A DNA stretch of 64,000 nt from Escherichia coli (GTDB lineage Bacteria > Pseudomonadota > Gammaproteobacteria > Enterobacterales > Enterobacteriaceae). A model generated the notes under the pieces. It saw only the letters and a program-made list of their open reading frames with translations, was not told the DNA's origin and ran no database searches. How positions within the stretch are numbered: position 1 is the stretch's first letter; every line of letters begins with the position of its first letter. Made by a program: the position numbers and the translations under genes. Below are positions 14,344-61,034 of this stretch, piece by piece. Location: the NCBI RefSeq assembly GCF_050920415.1, contig NZ_CP169309.1; one strand, given 5' to 3'.

Positions 14344-14455
14344 CATCGCACCGTCTCTGTTCGGCTGTATACGGCTGGCAGACCGTGCCGGAGCATCACG
14401 CCCCACTCTGGCAGCAGGTCAGTCAGGTGGAACACAGGCCGTTGAGTGCCTATGA

Positions 14456-15262
<807 letters not shown>

Positions 15263-18572: not shown

Positions 18573-18873
18573 TTTGTTCTCCTTAATTATGTAAGGAGTA
18601 TTTGATCATGTATAAGCAATAAAAAACAGCTTTAGGTAATGAGGAATATCTCAATTTTCAAACATAAAATGCGAATTGTCTAGTACAAAAAAGCAGCGTT
18701 ACGTGATCTTTCCCTGCCTGCCTGTACGATATCCCTCAAAAATAATTTTCCAGTCAGTTATTCATGTCTAACTTAAAATCATAAAACATTTAAATTAATA
18801 ATAAACAAATTCAACCTAGTCGCATTATTATTTTAATAACACAGCATCGATTTCATAAAAAACTGCACAATGG

Positions 18874-19284: not shown

Positions 19285-19289
19285 ATCAA

Positions 19290-21779: not shown

Positions 21780-21788
21780 GTTCAGTCC

Positions 21789-23990
21789 TTATCGTGAGAA
21801 TCTTCCCGGCCGTTGTGGCGGTACCTTATCCTGCTGGGGAGGATCAAAGGCTTCCTGTACATTTTTCCGTGGTGGCTCCGCCCCTTCAGTTCCAGGTCCG
21901 CCATTGTCATAATCTGCCAGCGCTTTCAAAACCGCCGGTCGTAGTGTCGGCACCGGCGTTCCCGGACTACCGCCGCTATTGAGATTGATTTTCGGCCCGA
22001 CGATGTCCACGCCCCCTGAATGGATGACCACAAACGAACCACCCACCTTCAGGGTGATTTTACCGCCACTCTCCAGTACGATTTCATCCCGGACCTTCAT
22101 TCCCAGCGCACCGGTAATCTTCCTCGCCAGGTCGCCCTTCACCTCCAGACTGTGCGTTCCCTCCACCAGACTGATATGGTTCCCCGTCGTCTTATGCTCC
22201 TGCTTCCCTTCCACCGTCACTTTACGGTCGTTTCTGACATACAGGCCGTCATCGTGACTCACGCTCACCGTCCGGTCATTCGTCACCTTCAGCGTCTGGT
22301 CATTACGTACCGTTATGCGCCGGTCGTTCGCCACCGTGATACTCTGGTCGTGGCCCCCTTCTTTTCTGGTGCCGACCTCAACCGTCTGCCCCTTCACCAC
22401 CCTTATCTTCTGGTCGTTACCGATGGTCTCCGTATGGTCATGCTTCACGTCCGTCGTCCGGTCGTTAAGCACCTCCGTGTCCATGTTCTTCTGCGCGTGG
22501 ATATACACCTGCTCACTGTCCGTCGCATCCTCGAAACGCAGTTCATTAAAGCCGCTTCCTTTATAGGTCTTCGAGCGGATGGTCATCTGCGTCCGCGTGC
22601 CCGGTAAATCCCCCGGTGAACGGTTATCTTCATGGTAGGTCCGCCCCGTCACAATGGGCTGGTCCGGGTCGCCGTTCAGAAAGTCCACTATCACTTCCTG
22701 ACCCACACGCGGTATCGCCAGATTGCCGAACCCCGGTCCCGCCCATGCCTGCGACACCCGTATCCAGCATGAACTCTCCTCCGTCATCCCGTGATAACGG
22801 TCCCAGTGAAACTTCACCCGTACCCGGCCATGCTCGTCGCAGAATATCTCCTCGCCCTTCGGCCCGGTCACGATGGCACTCTGCGGGCCGTCCACCTTCG
22901 GCTTCGGCAGGGGCTGTGAGCGCCAGGTCCGGTCTGCCGGGATGACCGTGATATGGTTACTCAGTGTCGTTCCCCTCCCCTGGCTCCCGTGCAGCGCCTG
23001 CGGCTGGCTCCCCGTCAGCGTGCTGCTCACCACCTGCCACTCACGGTTCGGGTTCGCTCCCTGTACCGGATGCCCCGTCAGGGTGAACCGCCGTCCCGGC
23101 CACAGCGCCGGGGAGTTACTGATACCTGTGGCGGTTTCAGCACTGTTACGCAGCCCTTCCAGCCGGTAGCGGGTAAAGTCCTGACCATGCTGCTCGTCCT
23201 TGTAGCGCCCCGGCCAGTCCAGGATTTTGTACTGCTTCAGTTGCTCGTTGAGGTTTTCAGCATCCTCAATGTAAATACCCGGCCAGTCCGGCACCTTAAA
23301 CGTGTGGTCTTTTGAACGCACCTGCGAGGGCCGCACCTGCGCCTGGTAGCGGAACAGGCTGATGCACGCCGTCGTCACCTCACGGGTGTTCGGGTTAAAC
23401 GGTATCTCCCCGTACACCGGCAGGCCCGCCACATCATCGCACAGCGTGAGCGTCTGCTCCGGGCTGTCGTCAGCGTATCTGTCATAAAAGAAGATGCCTT
23501 CCTCCGCCCACAGCCGGGTCAGAAACGCCAGGTCGCTTTCACCGTACTGGACGCAGAACTCCCGTGCCGGGTGGCTCTCATAAAAGCGCGGCGTCCACTG
23601 CGTCACTCCGTCCTCGTTTAACAGCGTGGCGGAGATGGCCTGAATGTCCTGCTGCTGGAAGATTCGGTAGTTCTGCCGCAGCCCGCTGCGCCACAGGGGC
23701 GGGCGTATCTGAAGGTGGTACTGCATCTGCCAGCCGTTGTGCTCCTTCATGCCTAACCCCGACACCACACCGCTCACATAACGCAGCGCCGTGCCACCCT
23801 GCCAGATGGTCAGCACGGCCCCCTTCTCCAGCAGCTTCTCCGCCGTCTGGCGGAACGAGTCGCTGGCAACGTCCACATCCAGGACGAACGGCGATGAGTA
23901 TGCCTGCGTGAGGCGGAAATCCACCACCGCGAACGTCTCCGGCACCAGTCCGTCCACCGTCAGCGTAAAACGCAGCCCTTTTAATGACAT
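21789..23990 (-). CDS. vgrG: Type VI secretion spike protein VgrG (733 aa)
   Basis: MSLKGLRFTLTVDGL... N-terminus, gp27/gp5-like core with beta-helix repeats (VRNDQTLKVTNDRTVSVSHDD...), GGAGG-type RBS. Confidence 0.9.
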   Translation of the reverse strand: MSLKGLRFTLTVDGLVPETFAVVDFRLTQAYSSPFVLDVDVASDSFRQTAEKLLEKGAVLTIWQGGTALRYVSGVVSGLGMKEHNGWQMQYHLQIRPPLWRSGLRQNYRIFQQQDIQAISATLLNEDGVTQWTPRFYESHPAREFCVQYGESDLAFLTRLWAEEGIFFYDRYADDSPEQTLTLCDDVAGLPVYGEIPFNPNTREVTTACISLFRYQAQVRPSQVRSKDHTFKVPDWPGIYIEDAENLNEQLKQYKILDWPGRYKDEQHGQDFTRYRLEGLRNSAETATGISNSPALWPGRRFTLTGHPVQGANPNREWQVVSSTLTGSQPQALHGSQGRGTTLSNHITVIPADRTWRSQPLPKPKVDGPQSAIVTGPKGEEIFCDEHGRVRVKFHWDRYHGMTEESSCWIRVSQAWAGPGFGNLAIPRVGQEVIVDFLNGDPDQPIVTGRTYHEDNRSPGDLPGTRTQMTIRSKTYKGSGFNELRFEDATDSEQVYIHAQKNMDTEVLNDRTTDVKHDHTETIGNDQKIRVVKGQTVEVGTRKEGGHDQSITVANDRRITVRNDQTLKVTNDRTVSVSHDDGLYVRNDRKVTVEGKQEHKTTGNHISLVEGTHSLEVKGDLARKITGALGMKVRDEIVLESGGKITLKVGGSFVVIHSGGVDIVGPKINLNSGGSPGTPVPTLRPAVLKALADYDNGGPGTEGAEPPRKNVQEAFDPPQQDKVPPQRPGRFSR

Positions 23991-24145
23991 GATGACCTCC
24001 CTGGTATTGCTACAGGAAAAAGTAATTAACCGATATTGACCGTACCTTCTGATATTCTCTCACTGATTCATTATCTGTATTTCCCATGAACATTCTCATT
24101 TCAACAGGAAAACCAACGAATTGTAGCCATGACAATAAGTTAACA

Positions 24146-25060
24146 TTAATAATTCCTCAACGAATAAGGAGGAGATGCCCTGTCCCCATCAATAGTAACC
24201 ACGACCTGATTTGATCTTATTTTGAATATATTATCATTACCGCCATGATAGCCAAATCGTGCTAAAAAATCCTGAAATAGACCAGGTCCTCTATAAGGTC
24301 CACAGATTCTCCAAACCCGCCACTCCTCTATGCCATACGTTATTTTATCTATAGGATTAGTACACTCTCTTTCTGCCCGCCAGTTCATAATAGAAAGAAA
24401 ATACTCATATATATATTGTTCTGCAAACCACTCTTGATTAACTATTGTAAATTCTACCGTCCCTATATTATAACGATGAATGCCCGGTAAAAAGGCATAA
24501 TAATCGTTCAATGTGACATCAAAGGATAGCTCTTTCCCTGGTAATATCTCGCGCCAAACAGATTTACTTTTCCATTCACCAAAGCTACATTTTGTTTTTT
24601 TTAAAAAATCCAACTGAATGTTATCCATTATCGGTATAAACACACCACTACACAAGGAAGAGTAAGGCCCGCCGTTAACGTCAAGAGGAAGAGTTAGTCG
24701 ATGAACAAAATAAGATCCCTGGCTTTTATTCGATAAAACCACTGCAGCTGCTACAATATTTTCTTTCTGATGCACGGAAAGATGAAGATATATTTTATTT
24801 TTATCCTGATTATACTGACTCTCATTTTTACTGATAGTATAATATTGAAAAACAGCATAGGCTGAAAGATCATCATAATAATCATAATAATTAAGCCTTG
24901 TCGGTTCTACACGAGGATAGACACCAAGTTTTTCCATTACTCCATTCCAATGTAACTTCCCATATCTGTAATGAACCGCATAATCGCCAGAGATATCATA
25001 AGCAAATATTGGATGCACCCAAGAAAAAAAAGCAATAAAAACAATCCATCTAGCAAGCAT
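24146..25060 (-). CDS. Secreted protein with Sec signal peptide, putative immunity protein for the HExxH effector
   Basis: Start placed at the ATG at 25058-25060 (strong GGGGGAG RBS), giving MLARWIVFIAFFSWVHPIFA as signal peptide; 25 bp after the effector stop. Confidence 0.5.
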   Translation of the reverse strand: MLARWIVFIAFFSWVHPIFAYDISGDYAVHYRYGKLHWNGVMEKLGVYPRVEPTRLNYYDYYDDLSAYAVFQYYTISKNESQYNQDKNKIYLHLSVHQKENIVAAAVVLSNKSQGSYFVHRLTLPLDVNGGPYSSLCSGVFIPIMDNIQLDFLKKTKCSFGEWKSKSVWREILPGKELSFDVTLNDYYAFLPGIHRYNIGTVEFTIVNQEWFAEQYIYEYFLSIMNWRAERECTNPIDKITYGIEEWRVWRICGPYRGPGLFQDFLARFGYHGGNDNIFKIRSNQVVVTIDGDRASPPYSLRNY

Positions 25061-25084
25061 ATACTCCCCCGTCAAATAAAAGCA

Positions 25085-25930
25085 TCAATATGGTACAGGA
25101 ATCTCGAAATAACGTTCGATATTATATGCATTCTGAAACAGTTCTGATTTTTTATCATTTTTTAATTTAGTGGCATGAGCAATATATTCGTCACCTGTAC
25201 TATACTCTATATCTACCGGCATATCTTCCGTCCACATGCCTCCAAACTTAAGTGAATCCCCGTACCTTATAAAGTGAGATAGTTCATGGCAGAGTGTCGA
25301 TGCCTTAGAGTTTTCCCCAGTGAATGGCCTATCTATAAATCTTTGTCCTATAGTTATACTTACCAAACTTTTAAAGCTTCCAGATTTTACACCCAAAATC
25401 TGATCGTAAGTTACATTGGCAGCATAAGCGTCATTATCTGTACAATTCACAAAGTTACCAATTTTGGGCCTGATTACGTCTTTGTCAACATATTCATTAC
25501 CCCCTTTGTCATTAAGAACAAGATTACAATTGGCATCACGTTTGAGGAAATGGTCATGAACGGTAACGTCTACACAATCACCTTCCACAGATAATTCCCC
25601 ACATATCTCATACAGGCGAGTAACGCCATTTCTCATATAATCCCTTGCCTTTATATTCTCTGTAAACAGAGTATTACGCCCCCCGAAAGGGAACTTTAAT
25701 TTAATATAAGTATTTCCATCAATGCCAAATATATTTATAAATTCCTGATTTTGTTCCGCCCCCCATTTATCACCAAGATCTTCTACTCTTTTTTTCAATA
25801 CAGCCATCTGCGCCTTCAGAGCCTCTCTCATCATTATTTTAAAATCATTAGTAATTTTCCCCTCCTTTAAAACTACACACTGTTCACCACTCTGGCTTTT
25901 TCCGCTCGTACTACCCTTTTCATCTCCCAT
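25085..25930 (-). CDS. VgrG-linked putative zinc-metallopeptidase-like effector (281 aa, HExxH)
   Basis: CHELSHF (HExxH) at residues 215-219, with a possible downstream Asp ligand in STGDEY; hydrophilic N-terminus with no signal peptide; AAGGAGGA RBS; 81 bp after the vgrG stop. Confidence 0.5.
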   Translation of the reverse strand: MGDEKGSTSGKSQSGEQCVVLKEGKITNDFKIMMREALKAQMAVLKKRVEDLGDKWGAEQNQEFINIFGIDGNTYIKLKFPFGGRNTLFTENIKARDYMRNGVTRLYEICGELSVEGDCVDVTVHDHFLKRDANCNLVLNDKGGNEYVDKDVIRPKIGNFVNCTDNDAYAANVTYDQILGVKSGSFKSLVSITIGQRFIDRPFTGENSKASTLCHELSHFIRYGDSLKFGGMWTEDMPVDIEYSTGDEYIAHATKLKNDKKSELFQNAYNIERYFEIPVPY

Positions 25931-26011
25931 ATAAATCCTCCTTGGTATATATTTTCACTACAAACCCTGTTCCATTTATGCAAAAACACGCCAATTACAG
26001 GCGGTCACTCT

Positions 26012-28324
26012 CTATTCATTAATCCCTCCCCATATCATATCGATATTCAAATGCAACAATCTGACGTCTATTGTCTGCTCGCTGTCAGTGGTGAATATTT
26101 CCGTATACCCATCCTTATCCGTTTCTCCGCGGGTCTGCGTGCCGTCCTCAAAGAAGGCAATGTAGCGTGTCTCTGAATACGGTATCCCGTCATCGTCTGT
26201 AAAATGGAACTGGAGAGTATATTTTTCAGGGTTCTCATCATCATTCTCATCCTCCAGCGCCTCCAGTACAACCGGTTGCAGCGTCGATACTGGCGTCCCC
26301 GGACCTCCCCCACCATTCAGGTTTATCTTCGGCCCCACTATATCCACGCCGCCAGAGTGTATCACCACGAACGAACCGCCCGCTTTCAGGCTTATCTGGC
26401 TGCTGCTCTCCAGCACGATATCCCCGTCCACCTTTATCCCCAGCGCGCCACTCACCTTCTCCGCCAGGTCACCCTTCACCTCCAGGCTGTGTTTCCCCTC
26501 CACCAGGCTGATATGGTTTCCCGTCGTCTTATGCTCCTGCTTCCCTTCCACCGTCACTTTACGGTCGTTTCTGACATACAGGCCGTCATCGTGACTCACG
26601 CTCACCGTCCGGTCATTCGTCACCTTCAGCGTCTGGTCATTACGTACCGTTATGCGCCGGTCGTTCGCCACCGTGATACTCTGGTCGTGACCCCCTTCTT
26701 TTCTGGTGCCGACCTCAACCGTCTGCCCCTTCACCACCCTTATCTTCTGGTCGTTACCGATGGTCTCCGTATGGTCATGCTTCACGTCCGTCGTCCGGTC
26801 GTTAAGCACCTCCGTGTCCATGTTCTTCTGCGCGTGGATATACACCTGCTCACTGTCCGTCGCATCCTCGAAACGCAGTTCATTAAAGCCGCTTCCTTTA
26901 TAGGTCTTCGAGCGGATGGTCATCTGCGTCCGCGTGCCCGGTAAATCCCCCGGTGAACGGTTATCTTCATGGTAGGTCCGCCCCGTCACAATGGGCTGGT
27001 CCGGGTCGCCGTTCAGAAAGTCCACTATCACTTCCTGACCCACACGCGGTATCGCCAGATTGCCGAACCCCGGTCCCGCCCATGCCTGCGACACCCGTAT
27101 CCAGCATGAACTCTCCTCCGTCATCCCGTGATAACGGTCCCAGTGAAACTTCACCCGTACCCGGCCATGCTCGTCGCAGAATATCTCCTCACCCTTCGGC
27201 CCGGTCACGATGGCACTCTGCGGGCCGTCCACCTTCGGCTTCGGCAGCGGCGCGTGACGCCACGTCCTGTCTGCCGGTATCACCTCAAACTGATTGCTCA
27301 GTGTCGTCCCTTCACCGTGACTCCCGTGCAGCGCCTGCGGCTGTTCTCCCCGCAGTGTGCTTCCCACAACCTGCCATTCCCGGTTCAGCGTCGCTGACGG
27401 ATGGCCCGTCAGCCGGAACCGCGTTCCCGGCCACAGCCGCGCCGTGTTACACACCCCGCTCGCCGTCTCCGCCCCGTTCCGCCACCCTTCCGTCTGGTAA
27501 CGCGCAAAATCCTGGCCATGCTGCTCATCCTTGAAACGCCCCGGATAATCAAATATCTCGTACTGCGTTCCCTGTCCGTTCAGGCTCTCCCCGTCATGGC
27601 TGTAGTACCCCGGCCACCCCGGCGTTTTGAACGTATAATCCTGCGTCTCCACCGACGCCACGCTTATCTGCGCACGGTAACGGAAGTCGCGGATGTACTC
27701 TGTCGTGCCTCCGGTCGTGGTATTCGGGTTAAACGCCAGCGCCCCCATTCCCGTCAGCCCCGCCACGTCATCACACACCGCCAGCTTCTGTTCCGGCCCG
27801 TCCTGACTGCAGCGTTCATAAAAGAAGATACCTTCCTCCGCCCACAGCCGGGTCAGGAATGTCAGGTCGCTCTCCCCGTACTGCACGCAGAACTCCCGCG
27901 CCGGGTGCGCCTCATAGAACAGCGGCATCCACGCCGTCACCCCGTTCTCTTCAAGAAGCTGCGCTGATATCGTCTGAATGTCCTGCTGCTGGAAGATACG
28001 GAAGTTCTGCCGTAACCCTGCCCGCCACAGCGGCGGGCTGATGCTCAGGGAATAACGCATCTGCCAGTCGTTGTTCTCACCGAGCTGCACCTCTGTCACG
28101 ATACCGCTGACGTAACGCTGTGCAGTGTCGCCCTGCCAGACCGTCAGCACCGCGCTTTTCTCCAGAAAATCTTCTGCCGTCAGGTCAGACAGTCCGCTGG
28201 CGATATCCACATCCAGGATGAACGGTGTGCAGTGGTGCTGGTACAGACGGAAGCTCACCACCGCCGTCGCCATCTCCACAATACCGTCCACCGACAGCGT
28301 GAAACGTAATCCTTCTGCTGCCAT
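26012..28324 (-). CDS. vgrG: Type VI secretion spike protein VgrG with a divergent acidic C-terminal extension (about 770 aa)
   Basis: Start set at MAAEGLRFTLSVDG (ATG at 28322-28324); core nearly identical to the vgrG at 21789-23990; C-terminal 100 aa (...EDENDDENPEKYTLQFHFTDDDGIPYSE...) is unique. Confidence 0.9.
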   Translation of the reverse strand: MAAEGLRFTLSVDGIVEMATAVVSFRLYQHHCTPFILDVDIASGLSDLTAEDFLEKSAVLTVWQGDTAQRYVSGIVTEVQLGENNDWQMRYSLSISPPLWRAGLRQNFRIFQQQDIQTISAQLLEENGVTAWMPLFYEAHPAREFCVQYGESDLTFLTRLWAEEGIFFYERCSQDGPEQKLAVCDDVAGLTGMGALAFNPNTTTGGTTEYIRDFRYRAQISVASVETQDYTFKTPGWPGYYSHDGESLNGQGTQYEIFDYPGRFKDEQHGQDFARYQTEGWRNGAETASGVCNTARLWPGTRFRLTGHPSATLNREWQVVGSTLRGEQPQALHGSHGEGTTLSNQFEVIPADRTWRHAPLPKPKVDGPQSAIVTGPKGEEIFCDEHGRVRVKFHWDRYHGMTEESSCWIRVSQAWAGPGFGNLAIPRVGQEVIVDFLNGDPDQPIVTGRTYHEDNRSPGDLPGTRTQMTIRSKTYKGSGFNELRFEDATDSEQVYIHAQKNMDTEVLNDRTTDVKHDHTETIGNDQKIRVVKGQTVEVGTRKEGGHDQSITVANDRRITVRNDQTLKVTNDRTVSVSHDDGLYVRNDRKVTVEGKQEHKTTGNHISLVEGKHSLEVKGDLAEKVSGALGIKVDGDIVLESSSQISLKAGGSFVVIHSGGVDIVGPKINLNGGGGPGTPVSTLQPVVLEALEDENDDENPEKYTLQFHFTDDDGIPYSETRYIAFFEDGTQTRGETDKDGYTEIFTTDSEQTIDVRLLHLNIDMIWGGINE

Positions 28325-35835: not shown

Positions 35836-36021
35836 GTGAAAAGTGCAGACGTGATCGCCATCCTGAAGCAGCATGGCTGGGAACATATTCGAACCCGTGG
35901 TAGTCATCATCAGTTCCGCCACCCTGTCCATCCGGGTCTGGTGACGGTTCCGCACCCTAAAAAAGATATTAAGCCCGGTACGCTGGCGCAAATTGGGCGT
36001 CAGGCTGGTTTAACATTTTAA
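35836..36021 (+). CDS. hicA: HicA-family toxin (YcfA-like mRNA interferase), 61 aa, GTG start
   Basis: MKSADVIAILKQHGWEHIRTRGSHHQFRHPVHPGLVTVPHPKKDIKPGTLAQIGRQAGL matches the HicA pattern (GSHhqf...vtvPhH.kdlk.gtl..I..qaGl). Confidence 0.7.
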   Translation: MKSADVIAILKQHGWEHIRTRGSHHQFRHPVHPGLVTVPHPKKDIKPGTLAQIGRQAGLTF

Positions 36022-36037
36022 AATTTCAGGAGGCAAT

Positions 36038-36448
36038 ATGTTTTATCCCGCCTATATCCACAGTGATCCTGACGGCAGCGCCAGCGGTTTTTTCCCTGAT
36101 GTTCCAGGCTGTTATTTTGCTGGTGATACGCTGGACAACGCTTTCCAGGATGCGCGAAGTGCACTGGTCGCGCACTTCGAAACCTTATGCGAGATGAATG
36201 AAGAGTTGCCGCTTCCAGGCTCTGTGGAAACACATCTGGTCCAGCGTGCGCAGGACTTTATTGGCGGGCAATGGTTGCTGGTGGATATCAATATGAATCA
36301 GTTCGAAGGTCGGGCTGAACGTATCAATATTACGATGCCGAAAAGATTACTGAACAAGATTGATACCTACGTGCGCAATAACCCAGACTACGCCAACAGA
36401 AGTGCGTTTCTGGCGGAAGCTGCCCGGCGTGTATTGCCGGGCGTTTAA
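36038..36448 (+). CDS. hicB: HicB-family antitoxin with C-terminal ribbon-helix-helix domain (136 aa)
   Basis: Starts 17 bp after hicA; N-terminal HicB fold; C-terminal INITMPKRLLNKIDTYVRNNPDYANRSAFLAEAARRVL has RHH character. Confidence 0.65.
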   Translation: MFYPAYIHSDPDGSASGFFPDVPGCYFAGDTLDNAFQDARSALVAHFETLCEMNEELPLPGSVETHLVQRAQDFIGGQWLLVDINMNQFEGRAERINITMPKRLLNKIDTYVRNNPDYANRSAFLAEAARRVLPGV

Positions 36449-36780
36449 TCTCGCGTTTCGATGGTGAGCGGGCGGACCAGGCTGTACAGCCACAGACCAA
36501 AACAAGCGATGGTGCCAATCACCACGGTGAGGAACACACTGACTGACAGGCCTGCAAGCAATCCCGCAGGCAGGGCCAGCAGGCCGTGGATCACGGTGTC
36601 GTTCCATCTCACCTGATCGTAGCCAAACATGCCTAAAACGCCGCAAACCAGACCGTAAATCACCATTGGTGTTCCGAGGCCAATCAGCAATAAACGGTAG
36701 ATAATTGAAGGTTTAATACGCTTTATCTGTACTGTGGATGTTTTACTGGGGTTATTCATTAGTTTGGTCAATAGTTCCAT
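36445..36780 (-). CDS. Small inner-membrane protein, about 110 aa, 2-3 predicted TM helices
   Basis: Hydrophobic segments IIYRLLLIGLGTPMVIYGLVCGVLGMF and LLALPAGLLAGLSVSVFLTVVIGTIACFGLWLY; convergent with hicB, stop codons overlap; start codon uncertain. Confidence 0.4.
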   Translation of the reverse strand: MELLTKLMNNPSKTSTVQIKRIKPSIIYRLLLIGLGTPMVIYGLVCGVLGMFGYDQVRWNDTVIHGLLALPAGLLAGLSVSVFLTVVIGTIACFGLWLYSLVRPLTIETRD

Positions 36781-39378: not shown

Positions 39379-39501
39379 CGCAACAGCCCAATTATATATA
39401 ATTTTATATATTACTATATAAATATGAATCTTGCACCGGAGAAATTGTAAGCATTATTATGCCGACTCTTTTTTATCTTATTTTAAAATGGAATACCGGA
39501 C

Positions 39502-40242
39502 ATGTTAATTAACCGCAATATTGTGGCGTTATTTACGTTGCCTTTTATGGCAAGCGCTACTGCTTCTGAATTATCCATTGGTGCTGGTGCAGCTTATAAT
39601 GAATCGCCTTATCGTGGTTATAATGAAAATACAAAGGCAATTCCGCTGATTAGTTATGAAGGTGATTCTTTTTATGTTCGTCAGACCACGTTAGGTTTTA
39701 TTCTGTCGCAAAGTGAAAAAAATGAACTTAGCCTGACCGCATCCTGGATGCCGCTGGAATTTGACCCTGCAGATAATGACGATCATGCCATGCAACAGCT
39801 TGATAAGCGTGATAGTACGGCTATGGCGGGGGTTGCCTGGTATCACCACGAGCGTTGGGGAACCGTGAAAGCCTCTGCGGCTGCGGACGTTCTGGATAAC
39901 AGCAACGGCTGGGTGGGGGAGCTATCGGTATTTCACAAAATGCAGATAGGTCGCCTGTCGCTGACACCTGCACTGGGCGTTCTCTATTATGACGAGAATT
40001 TCAGTGACTATTACTATGGCATTTCAGAGAGTGAGTCCCGTCGTAGCGGTCTGGCAAGTTATTCCGCGCAGGATGCCTGGGTGCCCTATGTCAGCCTGAC
40101 GGCAAAATACCCGATAGGAGAGCACATCGTATTGATGGCGAGTGCCGGATACAGCGAGCTGCCGGAAGAGATTACCGACAGCCCGATGATTGATCGTAAT
40201 GAGAGTTTTACCTTTGTCACCGGCGTGAGCTGGCGTTTTTAA
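39502..40242 (+). CDS. yiaT: Outer-membrane protein YiaT (MipA/OmpV family, 246 aa)
   Basis: Signal peptide then beta-strand-rich sequence ending in an aromatic C-terminus (...VSWRF). Confidence 0.85.
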   Translation: MLINRNIVALFTLPFMASATASELSIGAGAAYNESPYRGYNENTKAIPLISYEGDSFYVRQTTLGFILSQSEKNELSLTASWMPLEFDPADNDDHAMQQLDKRDSTAMAGVAWYHHERWGTVKASAAADVLDNSNGWVGELSVFHKMQIGRLSLTPALGVLYYDENFSDYYYGISESESRRSGLASYSAQDAWVPYVSLTAKYPIGEHIVLMASAGYSELPEEITDSPMIDRNESFTFVTGVSWRF

Positions 40243-40289
40243 TTTACCGGTGGATGTCGGTGCGGCTGGCCTACGCTCTCGCACTGACC

Positions 40290-40370
40290 TTCAGGCTTGA
40301 TAAGACGCGTTAAGCGTCGCATCAGGCAATGTGCACCCTACGTTGGATGCGGCGCGAGCGCCTTATCCAA
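40290..40370. repeat. REP/BIME elements
   Basis: gcttgataagacgcgttaagcgtcgcatcaggc and ggatgcggcgcgagcgccttatcc palindromes. Confidence 0.6.
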
Positions 40371-40371
40371 C

Positions 40372-42342
40372 CTACGGATGGCAATGCTTTTCCTCATTCA
40401 CCCAGATCCGCATTTCGCCTTCACCCCGGTTAGCCCAGCTAAACCACGGGATAAATGTCAGAGTTTGCGGCTGGCGTTTGGCTGGCGCGCTGTCGTAATG
40501 CCACAGCGGTTGCTGCTCTGGATTGCTCTGTTCATACCGGTAACCCGGTGCCTGGATTAAGATCTTATGGCGGAACAATCCATTACCTTCAAATGTCGTA
40601 AATGGCGCATCGGCGGGCAGCCACAGGTTATGCAGTGACTCGCCGTTGTCGGCCTGTTCCAGGCAATACACCAGCGGGCCGCGCTGAATCGCCACTTTTC
40701 CGGCGACGTGACGCACCAGCGGGTTACCGTAAACGCGACGTACCGGCATTGGCAAAGTCAGATTCAGCGTGTCGCCCTCCTGCCATTCGCGGGTAATGTG
40801 CAAATACCCTTTACGAATATCCTGCTCGACCTCTTCCCCATTCAATGTAATCTGCGGCTGTGTGCACCAGTCCGGCAGACGTAAAGCCAGCGTATGACGC
40901 ACCGGCTGGGGCGATTCAACCGCAATTGTCACCTGTTCCTGCCACGGATAGTTTCCGCTAACCCGCAGACGCAGCGTGCCATTTTCTACCGGCACTTCCA
41001 TGCTGTTTCCTGCGTAGATGTTGATATACAACGCATCTTCACGCGGCGTGTAGAGATAATGACCAATCGAGGTTAGCACGCGGGCGATATTTGGCGGACA
41101 ACAAGCGCAACCAAACCAACGCTGGCGGATCGGCTTAACGTGATCGTAGATATGGTTGAATTTCAGCGATTTTGGATGTACTTCCAGCGGATTCACATAG
41201 AAGAAATGTTTGCCATCCAGCGCCATGCCGCCGAGCACGGTGTTGTACAGTGCGCGCTCCATCACATCGGCATATTGACTGTCGCCTTCCATTTCCAGCA
41301 TTCGCCGGGCGAACATCATCAGGCCGATGGAAGCACAGCTTTCGGCGTATACCGTGTCATTCGGCAGATCGTAATCGCTGCTGAACGCTTCGCCGCTGCT
41401 TTGTGAGCCAATGCCGCCGGTAATATATAACTGACGCTGGGCCATATTGTTCCACAGCCGCAGGCAGTCCTGACGCTTGCTTTCATCGTGACTTAAACGC
41501 GCGAGATGCGCGACGCCGGTCATCAGGTAGACAAAACGTACCGCGTGACCAATGGCAGTTTGCTGCTGTGCGATGGGCAAATGTGCCTGGCTGTAGGCTT
41601 TGTCTTTCACCATCCACGCCGGGCCGTAGGTGTGCCAGTGCGAGGTCTGCCCGCGCTTTTCATATTCCTGGTCGTAATAGTGCGGTTGCGCACCACGCTG
41701 TTCGACAAAATAGTTCGTCAGCGCCAGGTAGCGCGGCTCTTCGGTCACTTCATATAGGCGCATTAGTGCCAGTTCAATTTCCGGGTGACCAGGATAACCG
41801 TGTAACTTACTTTCACCTGGACCAAATACGCTGTCGATATGATCGGCCAGACGGCAAACCACTTCCAGCAAGCGCCGCTTGCCCGTGGCCTGGAAGAAGG
41901 CGACTCCGGCTTCAATCAGATGACCGGCGCAGTAAAGTTCATGACACTCCGCCAGATTGCTCCAGCGTTCTTCGGGCGTTTTTACCGTAAAGTAAGTATT
42001 GAGATAGCCATCTTCGCACTGGGCGGAAGCGACCAGTTCGATTACCTCGTCAGCAGTTTTTTCCAGTTCGGCATCCGGCTTCTGGCACAGCGACCAGGCT
42101 ACCGCTTCCAGCCATTTGGCGACGTCGCTGTCCTGAAACACCATCCCGTAAAATTCACCGTCTTGCAGTCCTGCGGCAATGCGAAAGTTTTCAATCGCAT
42201 GGCTGGGTTCCGCTTCTGGGATACGATCGTTCAAGGCATCCCACTGATAAGGAATCACCACGTCGCGGACCAGTTGTTGGTACTGACCGAGGAACGGATC
42301 GCTGACCGTCAGTTTATGCAGATCGACTTCCGAAATGTTCAT
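40372..42342 (-). CDS. Glycoside hydrolase, GH127-like (DUF1680 family, beta-L-arabinofuranosidase-type), about 656 aa
   Basis: Start at MNISEVDLHKL (AAGGAG RBS); Cys-rich motif WFGCACCPPN typical of GH127 as I recall it; 10 bp downstream of the transporter gene. Confidence 0.65.
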   Translation of the reverse strand: MNISEVDLHKLTVSDPFLGQYQQLVRDVVIPYQWDALNDRIPEAEPSHAIENFRIAAGLQDGEFYGMVFQDSDVAKWLEAVAWSLCQKPDAELEKTADEVIELVASAQCEDGYLNTYFTVKTPEERWSNLAECHELYCAGHLIEAGVAFFQATGKRRLLEVVCRLADHIDSVFGPGESKLHGYPGHPEIELALMRLYEVTEEPRYLALTNYFVEQRGAQPHYYDQEYEKRGQTSHWHTYGPAWMVKDKAYSQAHLPIAQQQTAIGHAVRFVYLMTGVAHLARLSHDESKRQDCLRLWNNMAQRQLYITGGIGSQSSGEAFSSDYDLPNDTVYAESCASIGLMMFARRMLEMEGDSQYADVMERALYNTVLGGMALDGKHFFYVNPLEVHPKSLKFNHIYDHVKPIRQRWFGCACCPPNIARVLTSIGHYLYTPREDALYINIYAGNSMEVPVENGTLRLRVSGNYPWQEQVTIAVESPQPVRHTLALRLPDWCTQPQITLNGEEVEQDIRKGYLHITREWQEGDTLNLTLPMPVRRVYGNPLVRHVAGKVAIQRGPLVYCLEQADNGESLHNLWLPADAPFTTFEGNGLFRHKILIQAPGYRYEQSNPEQQPLWHYDSAPAKRQPQTLTFIPWFSWANRGEGEMRIWVNEEKHCHP

Positions 42343-42352
42343 CTTGTGCTCC

Positions 42353-43753
42353 TTAAGGCTGTACATGACGCTGACGCAGGTCGCTAGCAATGCGTGACAT
42401 CATAGGGTTATTGAGTTTGCAAAAGCGGATCGCCATCGCCAGCAGCAGGTGGAACAGCGCAGGCAGCAATGTTTCCATCGCTGCGATCCCGCCAAGCGAA
42501 CTGGCGGTCTGGTTTTCCACGCCTGGCTGGTAGGCGACAAAAATAAACAGCAGGCTGATGATCCCGGCGCTGGAGGCCCAGGCCAGCTTGATGAAAAACA
42601 GATTGAAGGCGAAGTTCATGCCGGAAGAACGTACGCGGGTTTTCCACTCGCCGTAGTCATCGGCAAAGGCCATCAATGAGAAGTGCAATGGCAATGTGAA
42701 GCCAAGAATCACGCCATTACCAAGGATCACCGCCAGCCACAGCGTTTGATAAGCCGGGCCAGAAGGCAGGAACCACATCAACACCGCCAGCGCGGCGAGG
42801 AGCAGGTTGGTGTAGTAGTAAATTTTGACGGTATCGAAACGTCGCGTTAACGGGCTGACAATCACCGAGCCGATAATGGAGGCGAAGGTGACCATAGTGA
42901 AGAACAGCGACGTGTAGCCCGTACTGCCTTGTAAGACGTAGGTAATGAAGTACATATACCCACCGCCGCGAATATTAAAGACGTTAATCAGCAGGAAAGA
43001 CATGACCAGCATCAGCAGCAGTTGGTCGTTGTTTCGCAGCCCGGCAAGATGTTCGCGCAGGGTAAATTTCCCCATTGTGGAGAGTGGCACCCGTTCACGA
43101 ACCCAGAAGAAACAGCACAGGAACATCACCACAGCGATGGCGCACAGCACGCCGACGCCCAGTTGATAGCCGCGCGCGGCATTACCCTGACCGAAGAGAT
43201 CCACCATCCACGGCAGGCCAACCGAAACCAGAAATCCCGCTACGCCGCAGAGAACGAATCGCCAGGACTGGCAGGAGATCACTTCATTGTGGCGGGTGGT
43301 CATGGTGTTGATCAGCGCGCAGTACGGCACGTTGATGGCGGTATAACCGACTGAAAGGAGCAGGTAAGTGCCGAACGCCCAGGCGATTTTTACTCCCATG
43401 CTGGCATCTGGCACGGTGAACGTCAGGATGCCGATAATGCCGATGGGAATGGCAATCCACAACTGCCACGGACGAAAGCGCCCCCAGCGACTTTGCGTCC
43501 GGTCGGCAATGACGCCCATCACCGGGTCGGAGATGGCATCAAACACGCGCAGTGCAATAAACAGCGTGCCGACCAGCGCCGGAGTTAAGCCAAAAACGTC
43601 GGTGTAGAAAAAGGTGAGAAAGTTCATGATCAGGCAAGTTATGACGGTGCCGCCAGCGTCACCCAGGCCGTAGCCTATTTTTTCCCGTACAGATAACGCG
43701 TCGTCAATTTTACCTTTAGCGATATCAGCGGTGGTAATCGGTGTAGAGGTCAT
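42353..43753 (-). CDS. GPH-family (MelB-like) glycoside/cation symporter, about 466 aa
   Basis: 12-TM profile; N-terminal [35 protein letters not shown] and the D/R-rich loop-helix motifs typical of the GPH family. Confidence 0.7.
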
Positions 43754-43978
43754 AGATATTCCTCGCAAATAGAGAGCATTTTTTTGTTTTATTGCAATGA
43801 CCTGATTAATTTCGCCGTTATCTGGAATATCAACAAGGCGAGAAAAGAGTAAAAAAAGGTGACGATTCCGACCTGAATTTAAAAGTGTGAATTGGATCAG
43901 GTGAAATTAATGTTTTTGATTAATAATCAAAAGGTAATGTGTTTAATCATTAATGAATAAGCGGGAAATTACATATCA

Positions 43979-44794
43979 ATGCTCGAATTATCCATGACGT
44001 TACCGATTAAAGTGCAAAATGGTGGATTATTTATTTCCCGTGGCGTAGGGAGGCATCCGGCAAGGCGGCTGGAGTCATGGGAAATTATCTTTGTCGAAAA
44101 AGGTCGATTAGCGATTCAGGAAGAAGAGCGGATATTTCTGGTCGATGCGGGAGAGAGTTTATTACTCTGGCCGAACCGACAGCATGTTGGGGTAGAGGAT
44201 TTTCCCGCCGATCTCAAATTTTACTGGCTGCATTTTGAGGTTAAAGCGCCGGATAGCGACCCGCGCTGGCTCACTCATCTTAGTGTGCCGCAACAAACGA
44301 AGGTTGCCGATCCGCAGGCGCTGGTGGCCCTGTTTCGCCAGTTCTTAAGCGAACAGGAAAAGCATCAACGCACTCCGGCGCTGGAGTTTATTGTGCTGCT
44401 GATTTTGCAGCAACTCACCCGTGACGCGCGTCTTGATGAACAGGCCGATGCCGCAGGTACCACGCTTGCCTGGAAAGCGCAGAAACTGATCCGCACGCAA
44501 TATCATCGCCCGCTTTCCACTGCGCTTTTAGCCCGCGAGCTGTACTGCAATGCCGATTATCTTGGGCGCGTCTATCGGCGGGTGTTTCATCTGACGTTAA
44601 CAGAAGCAATCCACCGCCAGCGGGTGCGCGAAGCCGAAAAGCTGTTAATTAGCGAAGCGCGATCGCTCACGGAAGTGGCGGCGTTGTGCGGGTTTAATGA
44701 CGTTGGCTATTTCCGGCAGATTTTTCGCAAACACACCGGTTTAACGCCAGCTGCGTGGAAGCGACGTTACAGCAAGGAACATATCAATTCGTAG
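43979..44794 (+). CDS. AraC/XylS-family transcriptional regulator (271 aa)
   Basis: C-terminal double-HTH AraC signature (...TEVAALCGFNDVGYFRQIFRKHTGLTPAAWKRRY); divergent from the transporter/hydrolase operon. Confidence 0.75.
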   Translation: MLELSMTLPIKVQNGGLFISRGVGRHPARRLESWEIIFVEKGRLAIQEEERIFLVDAGESLLLWPNRQHVGVEDFPADLKFYWLHFEVKAPDSDPRWLTHLSVPQQTKVADPQALVALFRQFLSEQEKHQRTPALEFIVLLILQQLTRDARLDEQADAAGTTLAWKAQKLIRTQYHRPLSTALLARELYCNADYLGRVYRRVFHLTLTEAIHRQRVREAEKLLISEARSLTEVAALCGFNDVGYFRQIFRKHTGLTPAAWKRRYSKEHINS

Positions 44795-44825
44795 TGCCGG
44801 GGCAATGAAGCCCCGGCGTGAGAGA

Positions 44826-45521
44826 TTACTGCCCGTAATAGGCATTGGCCCCATGTTTACGCAGGTAGTGCTTATCCAGCAGTTCGTTTTGCATCGCAGG
44901 GAGCTGCGGCGCAAGCTGGCGCGAGAACAGGCCCATATAGGCGCACTCTTCCAGCACTACGGCATTATGCACCGCATCGGCGGCGTTTTTTCCCCAGGCG
45001 AACGGGCCGTGAGAATGCACCAGTACCGCCGGGATTTGTGCCGGACTCCTGCCGCGTTCTTCGAAAGTTTCAATGATCACTTCGCCGGTCTGATATTCAT
45101 ATTCGCCGTTAATCTCCTCTACGGTCATCTGTCGCGTGCAGGGGATGGCACCATAGAAATAATCGGCGTGCGTGGTGCCCCAGGCGGGGAGATCCAGCCC
45201 GGCCTGTGACCAGATGGTGGCGTGGCGCGAGTGGGTATGCACAATGCCACCGATTTCGGCATAGCGACGGTAAAGCGCCAGATGCGTTGGCGTATCGGAC
45301 GAGGGCTTTTTGCTACCTTCCACCACCTTGCCGCTGGCTATCTCAACCACCACCATATCGTCGGCGGTCATCACGTCGTACTCGACGCCGGAAGGCTTAA
45401 TTACCATCCATTGCCGCGTCTCGTCTACCGCACTGACATTGCCCCAGGTAAACGTCACCAGATGGTGAGCGGGAAGCGCCAGATTTGCCGCCAGTACGTC
45501 GGCTTTCAGTTGTTCTAACAT
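44826..45521 (-). CDS. sgbE: L-ribulose-5-phosphate 4-epimerase (231 aa)
   Basis: Class II aldolase/epimerase motifs (HTHS...; [12 protein letters not shown]); last gene of the yiaK-sgbE cluster. Confidence 0.85.
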
Positions 45522-46375
45522 ATAAATCCAGCCTCCTGCATACGCGCTTCAATCCAGCGCCGTGCCTGAATAATCTCCAGCACCGGCTCTTTGGCTTTTT
45601 CGGTCCACATCTCAATCAGAAATGATCCGCGATAGTTCAGTTCATGCAGCGTTTTGAAGATACCAACGAAATCGACGCAGCCTTCGCCAAACGGCACGTC
45701 GCGGAACTGTCCGGGGCTATGCTCGGTCACTGGCTGGGTATCTTTCAGGTGGATGGCGGCGATACGGTCAATGCCCAGTTTCAGTTCAGCGGGAACATCA
45801 TTGCCCCAGGCGCTAAGGTTGCCGACGTCCGGGTAGACGGTGAACCACGGCGAGGCGAGCATCTCGTCCCACTTTTTCCATTTGCTGATGGAGTTCATAA
45901 ACGAGGTATCCATAATCTCCACCGCCAGCATTACTTGTGATGCCGCCGCCTGTTCGACAGCCCACGTCAGCCCTTCAGCAAAACGTTGCCGGGTACCTTC
46001 GTCATGGTCTTCGTAATAGACGTCGTAGCCCGCCAGTTGAATGGTGCGAATACCGAGATCGCGCGCCAGGCGAATCGCTTTGCTCATGATCTCCCGCGCC
46101 CGTTCGCGCACCGCCTCGTCCCGGCTGCCAAAAGGAAAACGGCGATGGGCAGACAGACACATTGACGGAATGGTAACACCCGTTTCGATCATCGCGGTGA
46201 CCAGCGAGGCACGTTGCGCGGCGCTCCAGTCAAGGCGTGACAGCCGTTCATCGGTTTCATCCACCGACATTTCGACAAAATCAAAGCCACAGCTTTTCGC
46301 CAGCACCAGCCGCTCGGGCCAGGAGAGATCTTTCGCCAGTGCTTTTTCATAAATCCCTAACGGATGATTACGCAC
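45515..46375 (-). CDS. sgbU: L-xylulose-5-phosphate 3-epimerase (286 aa, GTG start)
   Basis: TIM-barrel sugar-phosphate epimerase; start assigned at GTG ([13 protein letters not shown]...), overlapping the sgbH stop. Confidence 0.8.
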
Positions 46376-47030
46376 GCGCGCCTCCCCAGATAGCGTCGAT
46401 TTGCGCATGGAAGTCGGCAGCTACCTGTGCCGGATTTGCTGCGCCTGCCAGCGCCCGCCCGGCAATAAACGCTTTCACGCGGATATCTTTAAACAGCGGC
46501 AGGTCAGCAGGCGTAATCCCGCCGGTAATGGAAAGCTCAAGGCCGATATCGGAAAGCGCCTTCATGCGTGCCAGATCGGCTTCGCCCCACTGTTGCCCGC
46601 TGGCTTGCGCGTCACGGCCACGATGATAAATGGCCTGCCGCACGCCAATACGATGCCAGTCGCGGGCGTCGTCCAGCGTCCAGTTACCAAAAAGCTCTAT
46701 CTGGATTTCACCACCGCAGCGTTGCGCCATTGCGTGGCCTTTTTCTACCGTCGCGAGCGGTGCAGCGCAGATGATGGTCATCCAGTTAGCGCCTGCGCCA
46801 AACGCCTGTTGCGCGAGCGTTTCACCAGCATCGGCGACCTTCCAGTCAGCAACGATGATTTTGTCCGGGCACTGTTCGCGCAAGGCTTTCACCGCGCCAA
46901 GCCCTTCGTTTAAACAGAGAATGGTGCCCGCTTCGACGATATCGACGCTGTCTTTTAACAGCGCAACGTCGCGCTGTGCGGCTTCAAGTGATGAGTGGTC
47001 GAGGGCCAGTTGCAGAAGTGGTCTGCTCAT
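46368..47030 (-). CDS. sgbH: 3-keto-L-gulonate-6-phosphate decarboxylase (220 aa)
   Basis: OMP-decarboxylase-like fold ([18 protein letters not shown]...); 220 aa. Confidence 0.85.
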
Positions 47031-48526: not shown

Positions 48527-49513
48527 TTATTGCACCTCATCCACGGCTTTCAGCAGTTCATCGCCCTGCGGAACATCTTTTACAAACATGTCGCGGACCT
48601 GAGTACCCAGTACGTCGCTAAAGGCTTTGCGATCAAGTTCGGTGATGACTTCCACGCCAGCGTCTTTCATGCCGTCGATGATTTTTTGCTGATTTTCGGC
48701 GACCAATTTGCGCTGGTAATTACCCGCTTCTTGCGCAGATGAAATTAGCGCTTGCTGGAACTCCGGGCTTAAGCCATCAAACTTCGCTTTGTTGATCACC
48801 ACCAGAAGTGGGGAATAGGCATGGTGCGTCAGAGAAAGGTACTTCTGCACTTCATAAAATTTGGCTGACCAGACGACGTTGATCGGGTGTTCCTAAGCGT
48901 CGATAGTGCGCGTTTCCAGCCCGGTATAGACTTCGGCAAATGGCATCGGAATCGGGTTAGCGCCAAAGACTTTGAATGCGGCGATATTCATCGGGCTATT
49001 GTTGGTGCGTATTTTCAGCCCTTTCAGGTCGGCAGGTGTTTTAACTGGCTGGCGTGAGTTGGTGACATCGCGCCAGCCGTTTTCCCAGTAGGCCAGTACT
49101 TTCAGTCCCTTACCTTCAAGGGAGGCCTTCAGTTCATCGCCGACTTTGCCGTCGAGTGTTTTATGCGCGTGGGCGGTATCGCGGAACAGGAAAGGAACAT
49201 CAAGCAGGTTCATCACAGGTGATAATCCGGCAAAGTTATTCGAGCCAGACATCTCCATATCAATAGTGCCGCCACGCACGCCGCTGATCATCGCTTGTGC
49301 GTTGCCGAGAGTACTGTCCGGGAACAGTTTTAATTTCAGCTCGCCTTTGGTTCTCTCCTGTAATAATTCATTAAATTTTTTCGCTGCAATATGTTGTGAG
49401 TCGGTTTGTGAGGTTTCATAACCGAAACGTAATGATTGTGCCGCCAGCGAAGACGTACTGAATGCAGCGAGGCCAGCAATGAATAATGCGTAGGTTACAG
49501 AGCGTAATTTCAT
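48527..49513 (-). pseudogene. yiaO: TRAP-transporter solute-binding protein YiaO with an in-frame amber stop
   Basis: The 987-bp frame (328 codons, the length I recall for K-12 YiaO) is intact except for TAG at 48893-48895 (minus strand), giving ...TRTIDA*EHPINVVW; the codon replaces the Gln of the conserved TRAP-SBP D-x-Q-E-x-P motif. Confidence 0.75.
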
Positions 49514-54604: not shown

Positions 54605-55897
<1,293 letters not shown>

Positions 55898-59379: not shown

Positions 59380-59766
59380 GGCGGATGAGTCCTTATTGCT
59401 GCGATTTCAGACAGTTTGCCAGCGATAAGCCAGACAAAACTCATCCCTGAGCGGTAAGTCCACAGGATGAGAAGCAAGGGTGAGCGATCGCGCGCAAAAA
59501 ACGGCCGAATTTTGCGATAAACCCCACATTTTCTGCGATTTAGCGCCAATCTGAATCGTTAACACGTGACATAGTTTCAGATTTGGACTATTCCTTGGGG
59601 TGCTCTTGACGGCTATTTTTGATATGATTTGAGATTCAACTCTCAAATTTGTGAAAAATATAAGGTGTTGGAATGTAGACTGGCCCCCTGAATCTCCAGA
59701 CAACCAGTATCACTTAAATAAGTGATAGTCTTAATACTAGTTTTTAGACTAGTCATTGGAGAACAG

Positions 59767-60132
59767 ATGATTGATGTCTTAGGGCCGGAGAAACGCAGAC
59801 GGCGTACCACACAGGAAAAGATCGCAATTGTTCAGCAGAGCTTTGAACCGGGGATGACGGTCTCCCTCGTTGCCCGGCAACATGGTGTAGCAGCCAGCCA
59901 GTTATTTCTCTGGCGTAAGCAATACCAGGAAGGAAGTCTTACTGCTGTCGCCGCCGGAGAACAGGTTGTTCCTGCCTCTGAACTTGCTGCCGCCATGAAG
60001 CAGATTAAAGAACTCCAGCGCCTGCTCGGCAAGAAAACGATGGAAAATGAACTCCTCAAAGAAGCCGTTGAATATGGACGGGCAAAAAAGTGGATAGCGC
60101 ACGCGCCCTTATTGCCCGGGGATGGGGAGTAA
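59767..60132 (+). CDS. insC: IS2 OrfA (InsC-like), 121 aa
   Basis: [53 protein letters not shown]... (HTH plus leucine zipper). Confidence 0.85.
60084..60090 (+). other. IS2 programmed -1 ribosomal frameshift heptamer (AAAAAAG)
   Basis: aaaaaag at 60084-60090, in the orfA/orfB overlap. Confidence 0.6.
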
Positions 60133-60995
60133 GCTTAGTCAGCCGTTGTCTCCGGGTGTCGCGTGCGCAGTTGCACGTCATTCTCAGACGAACCGATGAC
60201 TGGATGGATGGCCGCCGCAGTCGTCACACTGATGATACGGATGTGCTTCTCCGTATACACCATGTTATCGGAGAGCTGCCCACGTATGGTTATCGTCGGG
60301 TATGGGCGCTGCTTCGCAGACAGGCAGAACTTGATGGTATGCCTGCGATCAATGCCAAACGTGTTTACCGGATCATGCGCCAGAATGCGCTGTTGCTTGA
60401 GCGAAAACCTGCTGTACCGCCATCGAAACGGGCACATACAGGCAGAGTGGCCGTGAAAGAAAGCAATCAGCGATGGTGCTCTGACGGGTTCGAGTTCTGC
60501 TGTGATAACGGAGAGAGACTGCGTGTCACGTTCGCGCTGGACTGCTGTGATCGTGAGGCACTGCACTGGGCGGTGACTACTGGCGGCTTCAACAGTGAAA
60601 CAGTACAGGACGTCATGCTGGGAGCGGTGGAACGCCGCTTCGGCAACGATCTTCCGTCGTCTCCAGTGGAGTGGCTGACGGATAATGGTTCATGCTACCG
60701 GGCTAATGAAACACGCCAGTTCGCCCGGATGTTGGGACTTGAACCGAAGAACACGGCGGTGCGGAGTCCGGAGAGTAACGGAATAGCAGAGAGCTTCGTG
60801 AAAACGATAAAGCGTGACTACATCAGTATCATGCCCAAACCAGACGGGTTAACGGCAGCAAAGAACCTTGCAGAGGCGTTCGAGCATTATAACGAATGGC
60901 ATCCGCATAGTGCGCTGGGTTATCGCTCGCCACGGGAATATCTGCGGCAGCGGGCTTGTAATGGGTTAAGTGATAACAGATGTCTGGAAATATAG
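60090..60995 (+). CDS. insD: IS2 OrfB (InsD-like) DDE transposase, 301 aa, normally expressed as an OrfAB fusion by -1 frameshifting
   Basis: DDE catalytic core (...WCSDGFEF...LTDNGSCY...E at [12 protein letters not shown]); overlaps orfA in the -1 frame. Confidence 0.85.
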
Positions 60996-61034
60996 GGGCA
61001 AATCCAGAATGATTAAATCCGACCAGGAGACCTG

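Follow-up and report, generated by a model that had tools for sequence, protein, structure and literature searches.

The closest described systems

The subject of this report is a three-gene module found between yiaT and sgbE in a 64,000-nucleotide stretch of Escherichia coli chromosomal DNA (NCBI RefSeq assembly GCF_050920415.1, contig NZ_CP169309.1; the whole stretch is called the window below). The module encodes a hydrolase of glycoside hydrolase family 127 (GH127), a transporter of the glycoside-pentoside-hexuronide (GPH) family, and a regulator of the AraC type, and its closest described relatives come from Bifidobacterium, Geobacillus, and E. coli itself.

HypBA1 of Bifidobacterium longum JCM 1217 is, like the E. 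coli hydrolase, a cytoplasmic GH127 enzyme with a three-domain layout, and the two have an identical Cys3-Glu zinc site, with Cys as the nucleophile and Glu as the acid/base. In HypBA1, E322 is the acid/base, while E338, C340, C417, and C418 are the zinc ligands, C417 being also the nucleophile (PMC8106489). The bifidobacterial beta-arabinooligosaccharide system imports a small beta-L-arabinofuranosyl saccharide and then splits it inside the cell, as is proposed here for E. coli. It also comprises an extracellular GH121 beta-L-arabinobiosidase, which releases beta-Ara2 (PMC8106489), and an ATP-binding cassette (ABC) importer, which includes a beta-Ara2-binding protein. Neither is part of the E. 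coli module, which carries a GPH cation symporter and an AraC-type regulator instead.

The closest solved structure to the E. coli hydrolase is the GH127 beta-L-arabinofuranosidase of Geobacillus stearothermophilus (PDB 4QJY/4QK0), which we take to be Ara127N. Unlike the E. coli hydrolase, it comes from a Gram-positive thermophile, and its gene lies in a large cluster for L-arabinan utilisation that includes ABC transport, not in a three-gene GPH/AraC unit.

In E. coli, melR<>melAB, yicJ-yicI, and yagG-yagH resemble the module in that a GPH symporter is co-transcribed with a cytoplasmic glycosidase. The mel system also shares with it a divergently transcribed AraC-family gene, whose product, MelR, is an activator acting together with CRP at melAB (summarised in PMC13304739). 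Unlike in these three systems, the glycosidase of the module belongs to GH127, not to GH4, GH31, or GH43, and the transporter gene comes first.

Gene arrangement

The analysis presented below makes it probable that the module is a catabolic unit complete in itself, which enterobacteria have inherited vertically and which serves the use of a small beta-L-arabinofuranosyl saccharide. It is an ordinary, annotated, and experimentally uncharacterised set of known families (GH127, GPH, and AraC/XylS), arranged like other GPH-glycosidase operons. The genes were located from a list of open reading frames (ORFs) and from the RefSeq annotation of a near-identical record, strain MFDS1022581, which is 100% identical over 39400-45600 and whose annotation transfers one-to-one onto the window here. 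The two sources agree on the following features:

43753 to 42353, minus strand: GPH transporter gene of the major facilitator superfamily (MFS), 466 amino acids (aa)
42343 to 42352, minus strand: intercistronic gap of 10 nt from the transporter stop codon to the hydrolase ATG
42342 to 40372, minus strand: GH127 hydrolase gene, 656 aa
43754 to 43978: divergent control region, 225 bp, AT-rich (~40% GC)
43979 to 44794, plus strand: AraC-family regulator gene, 271 aa
39502 to 40242, plus strand: yiaT
45521 to 44826, minus strand: sgbE (annotated as araD)

The original prediction had described a GPH symporter and a GH127-like hydrolase encoded 10 bp apart, with a divergent AraC-type regulator, and all of these are in place. 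The transporter and hydrolase genes form a two-gene operon, transporter first, with the Shine-Dalgarno sequence AAGGAG of the hydrolase gene lying within the 3′ end of the transporter gene.

The GH127 hydrolase

The ATG start of the hydrolase at 42342 is backed by the Shine-Dalgarno sequence, by the annotation of the NCBI Prokaryotic Genome Annotation Pipeline (PGAP), and by homologues that align from residue 1. On the same grounds it is preferred to the TTG at 42390, an unlikely start from which the longest mechanically called ORF (672 aa) would run.

The GH127 layout, a catalytic (alpha/alpha)6 domain followed by a middle and a C-terminal beta domain, was looked for with Pfam profiles, and all three domains match: PF07944 at residues 12-427 (E=1.4e-111), PF20736 at 438-532, and PF20737 at 534-649. 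The Geobacillus structure 4QJY aligns over residues 11-650 with 791 bits (E=1e-236), at ~55% identity over 630 aligned residues, and the FxCACCPPN motif is conserved between the two; in the E. coli hydrolase this is WFGCACCPPN at residues 409-418. The far lower score of HypBA1 (3WKW; 515 bits, E=3.4e-153) still covers residues 11-648, and its catalytic and zinc residues E322, E338, C340, C417, and C418 align with the identical residues E318, E334, C336, C414, and C415. H142, H194, and H270 of HypBA1, presumably active-site histidines with a role in sugar binding, are likewise conserved. The assignment to GH127 made in the original prediction thus rests on three Pfam domains, full-length structural matches, and retained catalytic and zinc residues, and no unrelated family came up.

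The protein has no signal peptide and no hydrophobic segment (maximum KD19 of 1.21), and is cytoplasmic because of the latter. Its ratio of nonsynonymous to synonymous divergence (dN/dS) is 0.03-0.08. By homology, it is predicted to be a non-reducing-end beta-L-arabinofuranosidase of GH127.

The GPH symporter and the AraC-type regulator

The transporter is a GPH:cation symporter (TC 2.A.2), as judged from its match to the family model TIGR00792, which it passes with 333 bits against a cutoff of 231 over the whole profile (1-437 of 437); this bears out the symporter assignment of the original prediction. The protein is polytopic, with multiple hydrophobic segments across residues 53-447, and its dN/dS is 0.02-0.07. 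YagG and PRK11462 are its best subfamily matches, yet the scores stay below the cutoffs for both (357 against 610 and 325 against 836, respectively), as they do for MelB (209 against 456) and for the glucuronide transporter (194 against 528). Since the protein falls below all equivalog cutoffs, its substrate is not readable from the sequence.

The regulator combines an N-terminal AraC-like cupin sensor domain (PF02311, residues 26-132, E=1.5e-8) with a C-terminal double helix-turn-helix (PF12833, residues 184-263, E=4e-19; PF00165 matches too). These AraC_binding and HTH_18 domains, encoded on the opposite strand across the 225-bp spacer, agree with the divergent AraC-type regulator that had been predicted. 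It scores under every NCBIfam equivalog cutoff (AraC, 61 bits against 208), and it belongs to the AraC/XylS family but is not AraC, RhaS/R, or MelR; dN/dS is 0.05-0.16. Being below the cutoffs for MelB, YagG, MelR, and AraC, the transporter and the regulator are paralogues of these proteins with presumably different ligands.

A phylogenetic footprint of the control region, built from 72 aligned intergenic regions of ~70 species, revealed the following blocks:

43929 to 43915: palindrome TTGATTATTAATCAA, closer to the regulator gene
43900 to 43885, read towards the transporter gene: CRP-like site CCTGA-N6-TCACA
43877 to 43847, read towards the transporter gene: conserved block of 31 bp
43838 to 43831: CCTTGTTG, overlapping a candidate -35 element, TTGATA, at 43833-43828
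43810 to 43805: candidate -10 element ATTAAT (ATnAAT)

The roles of these blocks are suggested by their conservation. When the control region was scanned for consensus sigma-70 promoters, none was found, which fits dependence on an activator. In their spacing, the blocks are reminiscent of araBAD, rhaBAD, and melAB, where an AraC-family activator works in class II mode with a CRP site upstream. The four terminator-like matches returned by a terminator scan all lie within the regulator gene.

Substrate and proposed mechanism

The matches to the GH127, GPH, and AraC-type families favour beta-L-arabinofuranosides as the substrate class, in line with the original prediction, and we consider this class rather likely to be the right one. 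In the proposed mechanism, a di- or oligosaccharide or a glycoside with a non-reducing-end beta-L-arabinofuranose would cross the outer membrane; an example would be beta-L-Araf-(1,2)-L-Ara, freed by other microbes from plant hydroxyproline-rich glycoproteins or arabinans. The GPH cation symporter would then import the saccharide, and the cytoplasmic GH127 enzyme would cleave it through the Cys nucleophile in the Cys3-Glu zinc site into L-arabinose and an aglycone, the L-arabinose feeding the araBAD pathway. The regulator may sense the sugar by its cupin domain and activate the weak transporter-hydrolase promoter from sites both just upstream of the -35 element and overlapping it, probably together with CRP, which would place the operon under catabolite control.

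Several observations weigh against this proposal. GH127 includes enzymes of other specificities, and the sole NCBIfam match of the hydrolase is the aceric acid hydrolase model (NF049879), though far under its cutoff (456 bits against 950, the best stretch being residues 252-649). Expression data turned up for the Salmonella GH127 gene alone, which is up-regulated with lactulose, not an arabinoside (PMC13304739); this response may be simply catabolite de-repression. No extracellular substrate-generating enzyme is encoded near the module, the recurrent neighbours being unrelated core genes, so that substrates would need other microbes or plant turnover as their source. The promoter, the CRP site, and the activator sites have been deduced solely from conservation, and the simple scan for promoters came up empty. 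Finally, the searchable literature yielded no experimental work on any of the three proteins from E. coli or other enterobacteria: what it holds on the enterobacterial GH127 gene is a correlation with invasiveness in adherent-invasive E. coli (AIEC), the Salmonella lactulose transcriptome, and a count table of carbohydrate-active enzymes, with no biochemistry. In the first of these, a comparative-genomic association, the GH127 gene co-segregates with the epithelial invasiveness of isolates from inflammatory bowel disease (PMC11879602).

Some of these points would also fit a real, selected uptake-and-hydrolysis operon whose GH127 enzyme has a different specificity and whose product is not L-arabinose. 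The candidates would be another furanoside, a substrate of the aceric-acid or 3,6-anhydro-D-galactose type, or a host or microbial glycoside. The family is indeed polyspecific, as exemplified by the aceric acid hydrolase BT1003 (5MQO) and by carrageenan-related GH127 enzymes (PMC5698469), and neither the lactulose response of the Salmonella orthologue nor the transporter, whose specificity is hidden, speaks for an arabinoside. However, Bacteroides GH127 enzymes of other specificity match just the C-terminal two-thirds of the hydrolase: BT1003 (324 bits) and 6EX6 (393 bits) align solely over residues ~250-648, whereas two beta-L-arabinofuranosidases align end to end with 515-791 bits. In addition, the score against the aceric acid model is less than half its cutoff, all catalytic and zinc residues of HypBA1 are identical along with the three histidines, and aceric acid or anhydrogalactose is implausible as a substrate for a cytoplasmic enzyme in enteric bacteria that lack the upstream degradative machinery. 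A different specificity is therefore regarded as unlikely, and a beta-L-arabinofuranoside stays the most likely substrate.

If so, the module might represent an unrecognised enteric cross-feeding route on beta-L-arabinofuranosyl disaccharides that bifidobacteria or Bacteroides release from dietary extensins or arabinans, and the polymorphism between intact (~43%) and scarred (46%) genomes described below would then be a real determinant of fitness in gut or plant niches. This extension is speculative, and we hold it to be possible, with the odds against it.

Distribution and ancestry of the locus

The original prediction took the module for a strain-specific sugar-utilisation module inserted between yiaT and sgbE. 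Such a recent insertion by horizontal transfer would be compatible with the absence of the module from K-12 and about one in two E. coli genomes, with the repetitive extragenic palindromic (REP) elements that flank one side, and with the position of the module in a hotspot of structural variation (hicAB variants; loss of yiaK-sgbE in O157-like genomes). The distribution of the module contradicts it. The 4-kb core is present at ≥95% identity in 2,313-2,324 of 5,426 complete E. coli genomes (~43%), belonging to unrelated lineages and including BL21, O157:H7, and ST131, and it is always chromosomal and single-copy. Beyond E. coli, the module occurs in representative genomes of at least 68 other species, and the trio occupies the same slot or neighbourhood across dozens of enterobacterial genera, so that neither "strain-specific" nor "inserted" holds.

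The K-12 site is itself informative. K-12 aligns to the window at 39400-40269, then at 40480-40669, and then from 44691 onward, so its supposedly empty site contains degraded pieces of the module. The first is a 190-bp internal fragment of the GH127 gene, in frame (residues ~558-620), with 89.5% identity and many substitutions; the second corresponds to the 3′-terminal 104 bp of the AraC-type gene. Both are annotated in RefSeq as partial pseudogenes, and one of the deletion junctions lies at a GGCTGG microhomology. The gene order in K-12 has been given as yiaS-ysaC…ysaD-yiaT (PMC12361893), from which we infer that ysaD is the GH127 fragment and ysaC the fragment of the AraC-type gene. These are remnants of the module between sgbE (yiaS) and yiaT and, unlike the module, non-functional fragments. 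Since the site holds leftovers of both the hydrolase and the regulator, the difference reflects loss in K-12 and not gain in this strain. The scar is found in ~2,480 E. coli genomes at ≥95% identity (~46%), and its being shared by so many genomes indicates a single old deletion allele.

Conservation across species was assessed in a scan of relatives with one genome per species, which found 263 relatives; the locus counts given here refer to the best 80 of these. In 73 of the 80 loci the transporter gene lies immediately upstream of the hydrolase gene, and in 68 of these the divergent regulator completes the trio. The five two-gene loci that lack the regulator comprise four truncated ones and one paralogue, and the seven hydrolase-only loci comprise six from Bradyrhizobium and one from Buttiauxella, where the transporter gene has been lost. 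The regulator gene is adjoined by sgbE in 24 loci and the hydrolase gene by yiaT in 20; in nine loci (Citrobacter, Enterobacter, Lelliottia, and Huaxiibacter) both junctions are as in the window, sgbE|module|yiaT. Where the immediate neighbours differ, inspection of representative sequences by eye showed aldB, yiaY, selAB, yibF, avtA, malS, ysaA, and bax as recurrent flanks, to which ORF clustering of the 80 loci added mtlA. The trio always sits within the malS…selAB neighbourhood, the same chromosomal surroundings as in the window, and the recurrence of these core genes is strong evidence for conserved synteny. The same clustering gave no co-conserved glycan-degrading partners among the neighbours, only the usual core genes, and hence no clue to the substrate.

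The composition of the module does not set it apart either. Its GC content of 0.52-0.58 is indistinguishable from that of the flanks, and in comparisons with Citrobacter, Salmonella, Klebsiella, and Enterobacter its synonymous divergence (dS) is similar to the values for sgbE and yiaT. According to the annotation, there is no integrase or transposase within 36.9-49.5 kb of the window, and no att-like repeats were seen there, only ordinary REPs. Wide distribution, a remnant-bearing K-12 site, ordinary composition, and the lack of mobility genes are not what marks a genomic island. An insertion is thus highly improbable and is refuted by the K-12 remnants together with the cross-genus synteny. 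The locus was almost certainly present in the ancestor of much of the Enterobacteriaceae and was deleted in the K-12 lineage, because its distribution within E. coli, the K-12 remnants, the cross-genus synteny, and the flank-like GC and dS without mobility genes all concur.

The repeated losses could be taken to mean that the module is a decaying relic without a current function in this strain as well: it is gone from half of E. coli genomes, adjacent genes have been repeatedly deleted in other lineages, and the neighbouring yiaO is a pseudogene in this strain. This has very little probability. The three ORFs are intact and full length, the ribosome-binding sites are intact, the promoter blocks are conserved across genera, and dN/dS of the three genes, whether compared within E. 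coli or between genera, is 0.02-0.16, similar to that of the flanking sgbE and yiaT. The true relic, that of K-12, shows by contrast 10.5% divergence and many amino-acid changes.

An ancestral locus that is still under purifying selection and present in such major pathogenic lineages as O157:H7 and ST131 makes K-12 the derived state, a natural deletion mutant in which ysaC and ysaD are the remains of the operon. A catabolic unit conserved across the Enterobacteriaceae is therefore missing from knowledge based on K-12. The intact-versus-scar polymorphism divides E. coli roughly in half, and K-12 as the natural null together with BL21 as the natural positive forms a ready pair for probing enteric beta-L-arabinofuranoside use.

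Variation around the module

The region is a rearrangement hotspot. In the window, the interval from aldB to yiaW holds a hicAB toxin-antitoxin pair and a hypothetical gene (35836-36759), while in strain WR3-3 (L084, 3306-3918) hicAB directly adjoins the GH127 gene and yiaW-yiaT is missing. The O157-like E. coli strain 1613 (L083, 7580-8537) has kept the module and lost the whole yiaK…sgbE operon, with just a 3′ fragment of yiaJ left beside the AraC-type gene. The module is also intact in Escherichia whittamii (L004, 4624-6364), where sgbE is missing between sgbU and the regulator gene.

The module was also considered as a functional partner of the adjacent yiaK-sgbE operon, and this was rejected, as O157-like genomes keep the module without the operon and in many genera sgbE does not adjoin it.

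Two further occurrences of the hydrolase gene stand outside the common pattern. The GH127 proteins of Bradyrhizobium spp. (L073-L077, L079) are 72% identical to the E. coli enzyme and so closer to it than the Geobacillus structure (~55%); their genes lack GPH and AraC partners and are found beside a PAS sensor kinase gene and a peptidase-like gene, an uninformative context. Transfer between Enterobacteriaceae and Bradyrhizobium may have taken place. The genome of Enterobacteriaceae bacterium MGYG-HGUT-00110 carries, besides the canonical trio (L031), a second GPH-GH127 pair on a second contig (L082), which is 70% identical, has no divergent regulator, and is a paralogous copy.

Intergenic elements

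The two gene-to-gene intervals that bound the module contain repeat structures:

40293 to 40377: inverted REP pair, similar to a bacterial interspersed mosaic element (BIME), between yiaT and the 3′ end of the GH127 gene
44796 to 44817: perfect 8-bp GC hairpin GCCGGGGC-AATGAA-GCCCCGGC, inside the 31 nt that separate sgbE from the convergent regulator gene

The window holds five copies of the REP core, where shuffled sequences gave an expectation of 0. The copy at 40345-40368 forms a pair with an inverted REP-like arm at 40293-40323, and the two together reach 67.8 bits with the Rfam family naRNA4 (RF02564; gathering score 59.5), which is derived from REP/BIME elements. The core repeat count, the inverted arm, and the naRNA4 score agree in confirming the REP elements that had been noted on the yiaT side. 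The stop codon of the GH127 gene, TAG at 40372-40374, falls within the second REP. In the Rfam scan of 39.4-45.6 kb, naRNA4 was the sole match, CRISPR-DR16 and c4 being sub-threshold chance matches.

The hairpin at 44796-44817 has no T-run on either strand, was not called by the terminator scan, and persists in the K-12 scar. It is a candidate transcript end or stabiliser.

Other features of the window

Within the yiaK-sgbE operon, yiaO, which encodes the substrate-binding protein of a tripartite ATP-independent periplasmic (TRAP) transporter (48527-49513, minus strand), has an internal stop at codon 207 and is a RefSeq pseudogene in a near-identical record. The longest ORF of sgbU (45515-46408, minus strand, 297 aa) begins 11 codons upstream of the annotated start of the 286-aa protein and overlaps sgbH; the extra codons are probably due just to an upstream in-frame ATG.

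Several mobile elements lie elsewhere in the window. An insertion of 1,331 bp between malS and bax (59676-61006) carries IS2-type InsC/InsD ORFs, has a 5-bp junction overlap, consistent with target duplication, and is absent from the otherwise near-identical NZ_CP169399.1. According to the annotation of the matching record, an IS621 copy is located between ysaA and avtA (54715-55695), and at ~12617-18572 the IS21-family element ISEc62 splits a yibH-like HlyD-family gene, with ISAs1 transposase fragments flanking a small island. Between yibH and yibF (~17100-28324), two vgrG/tssI genes, ~83% identical to each other, and the hypothetical genes downstream of them make up orphan type VI secretion vgrG islands.

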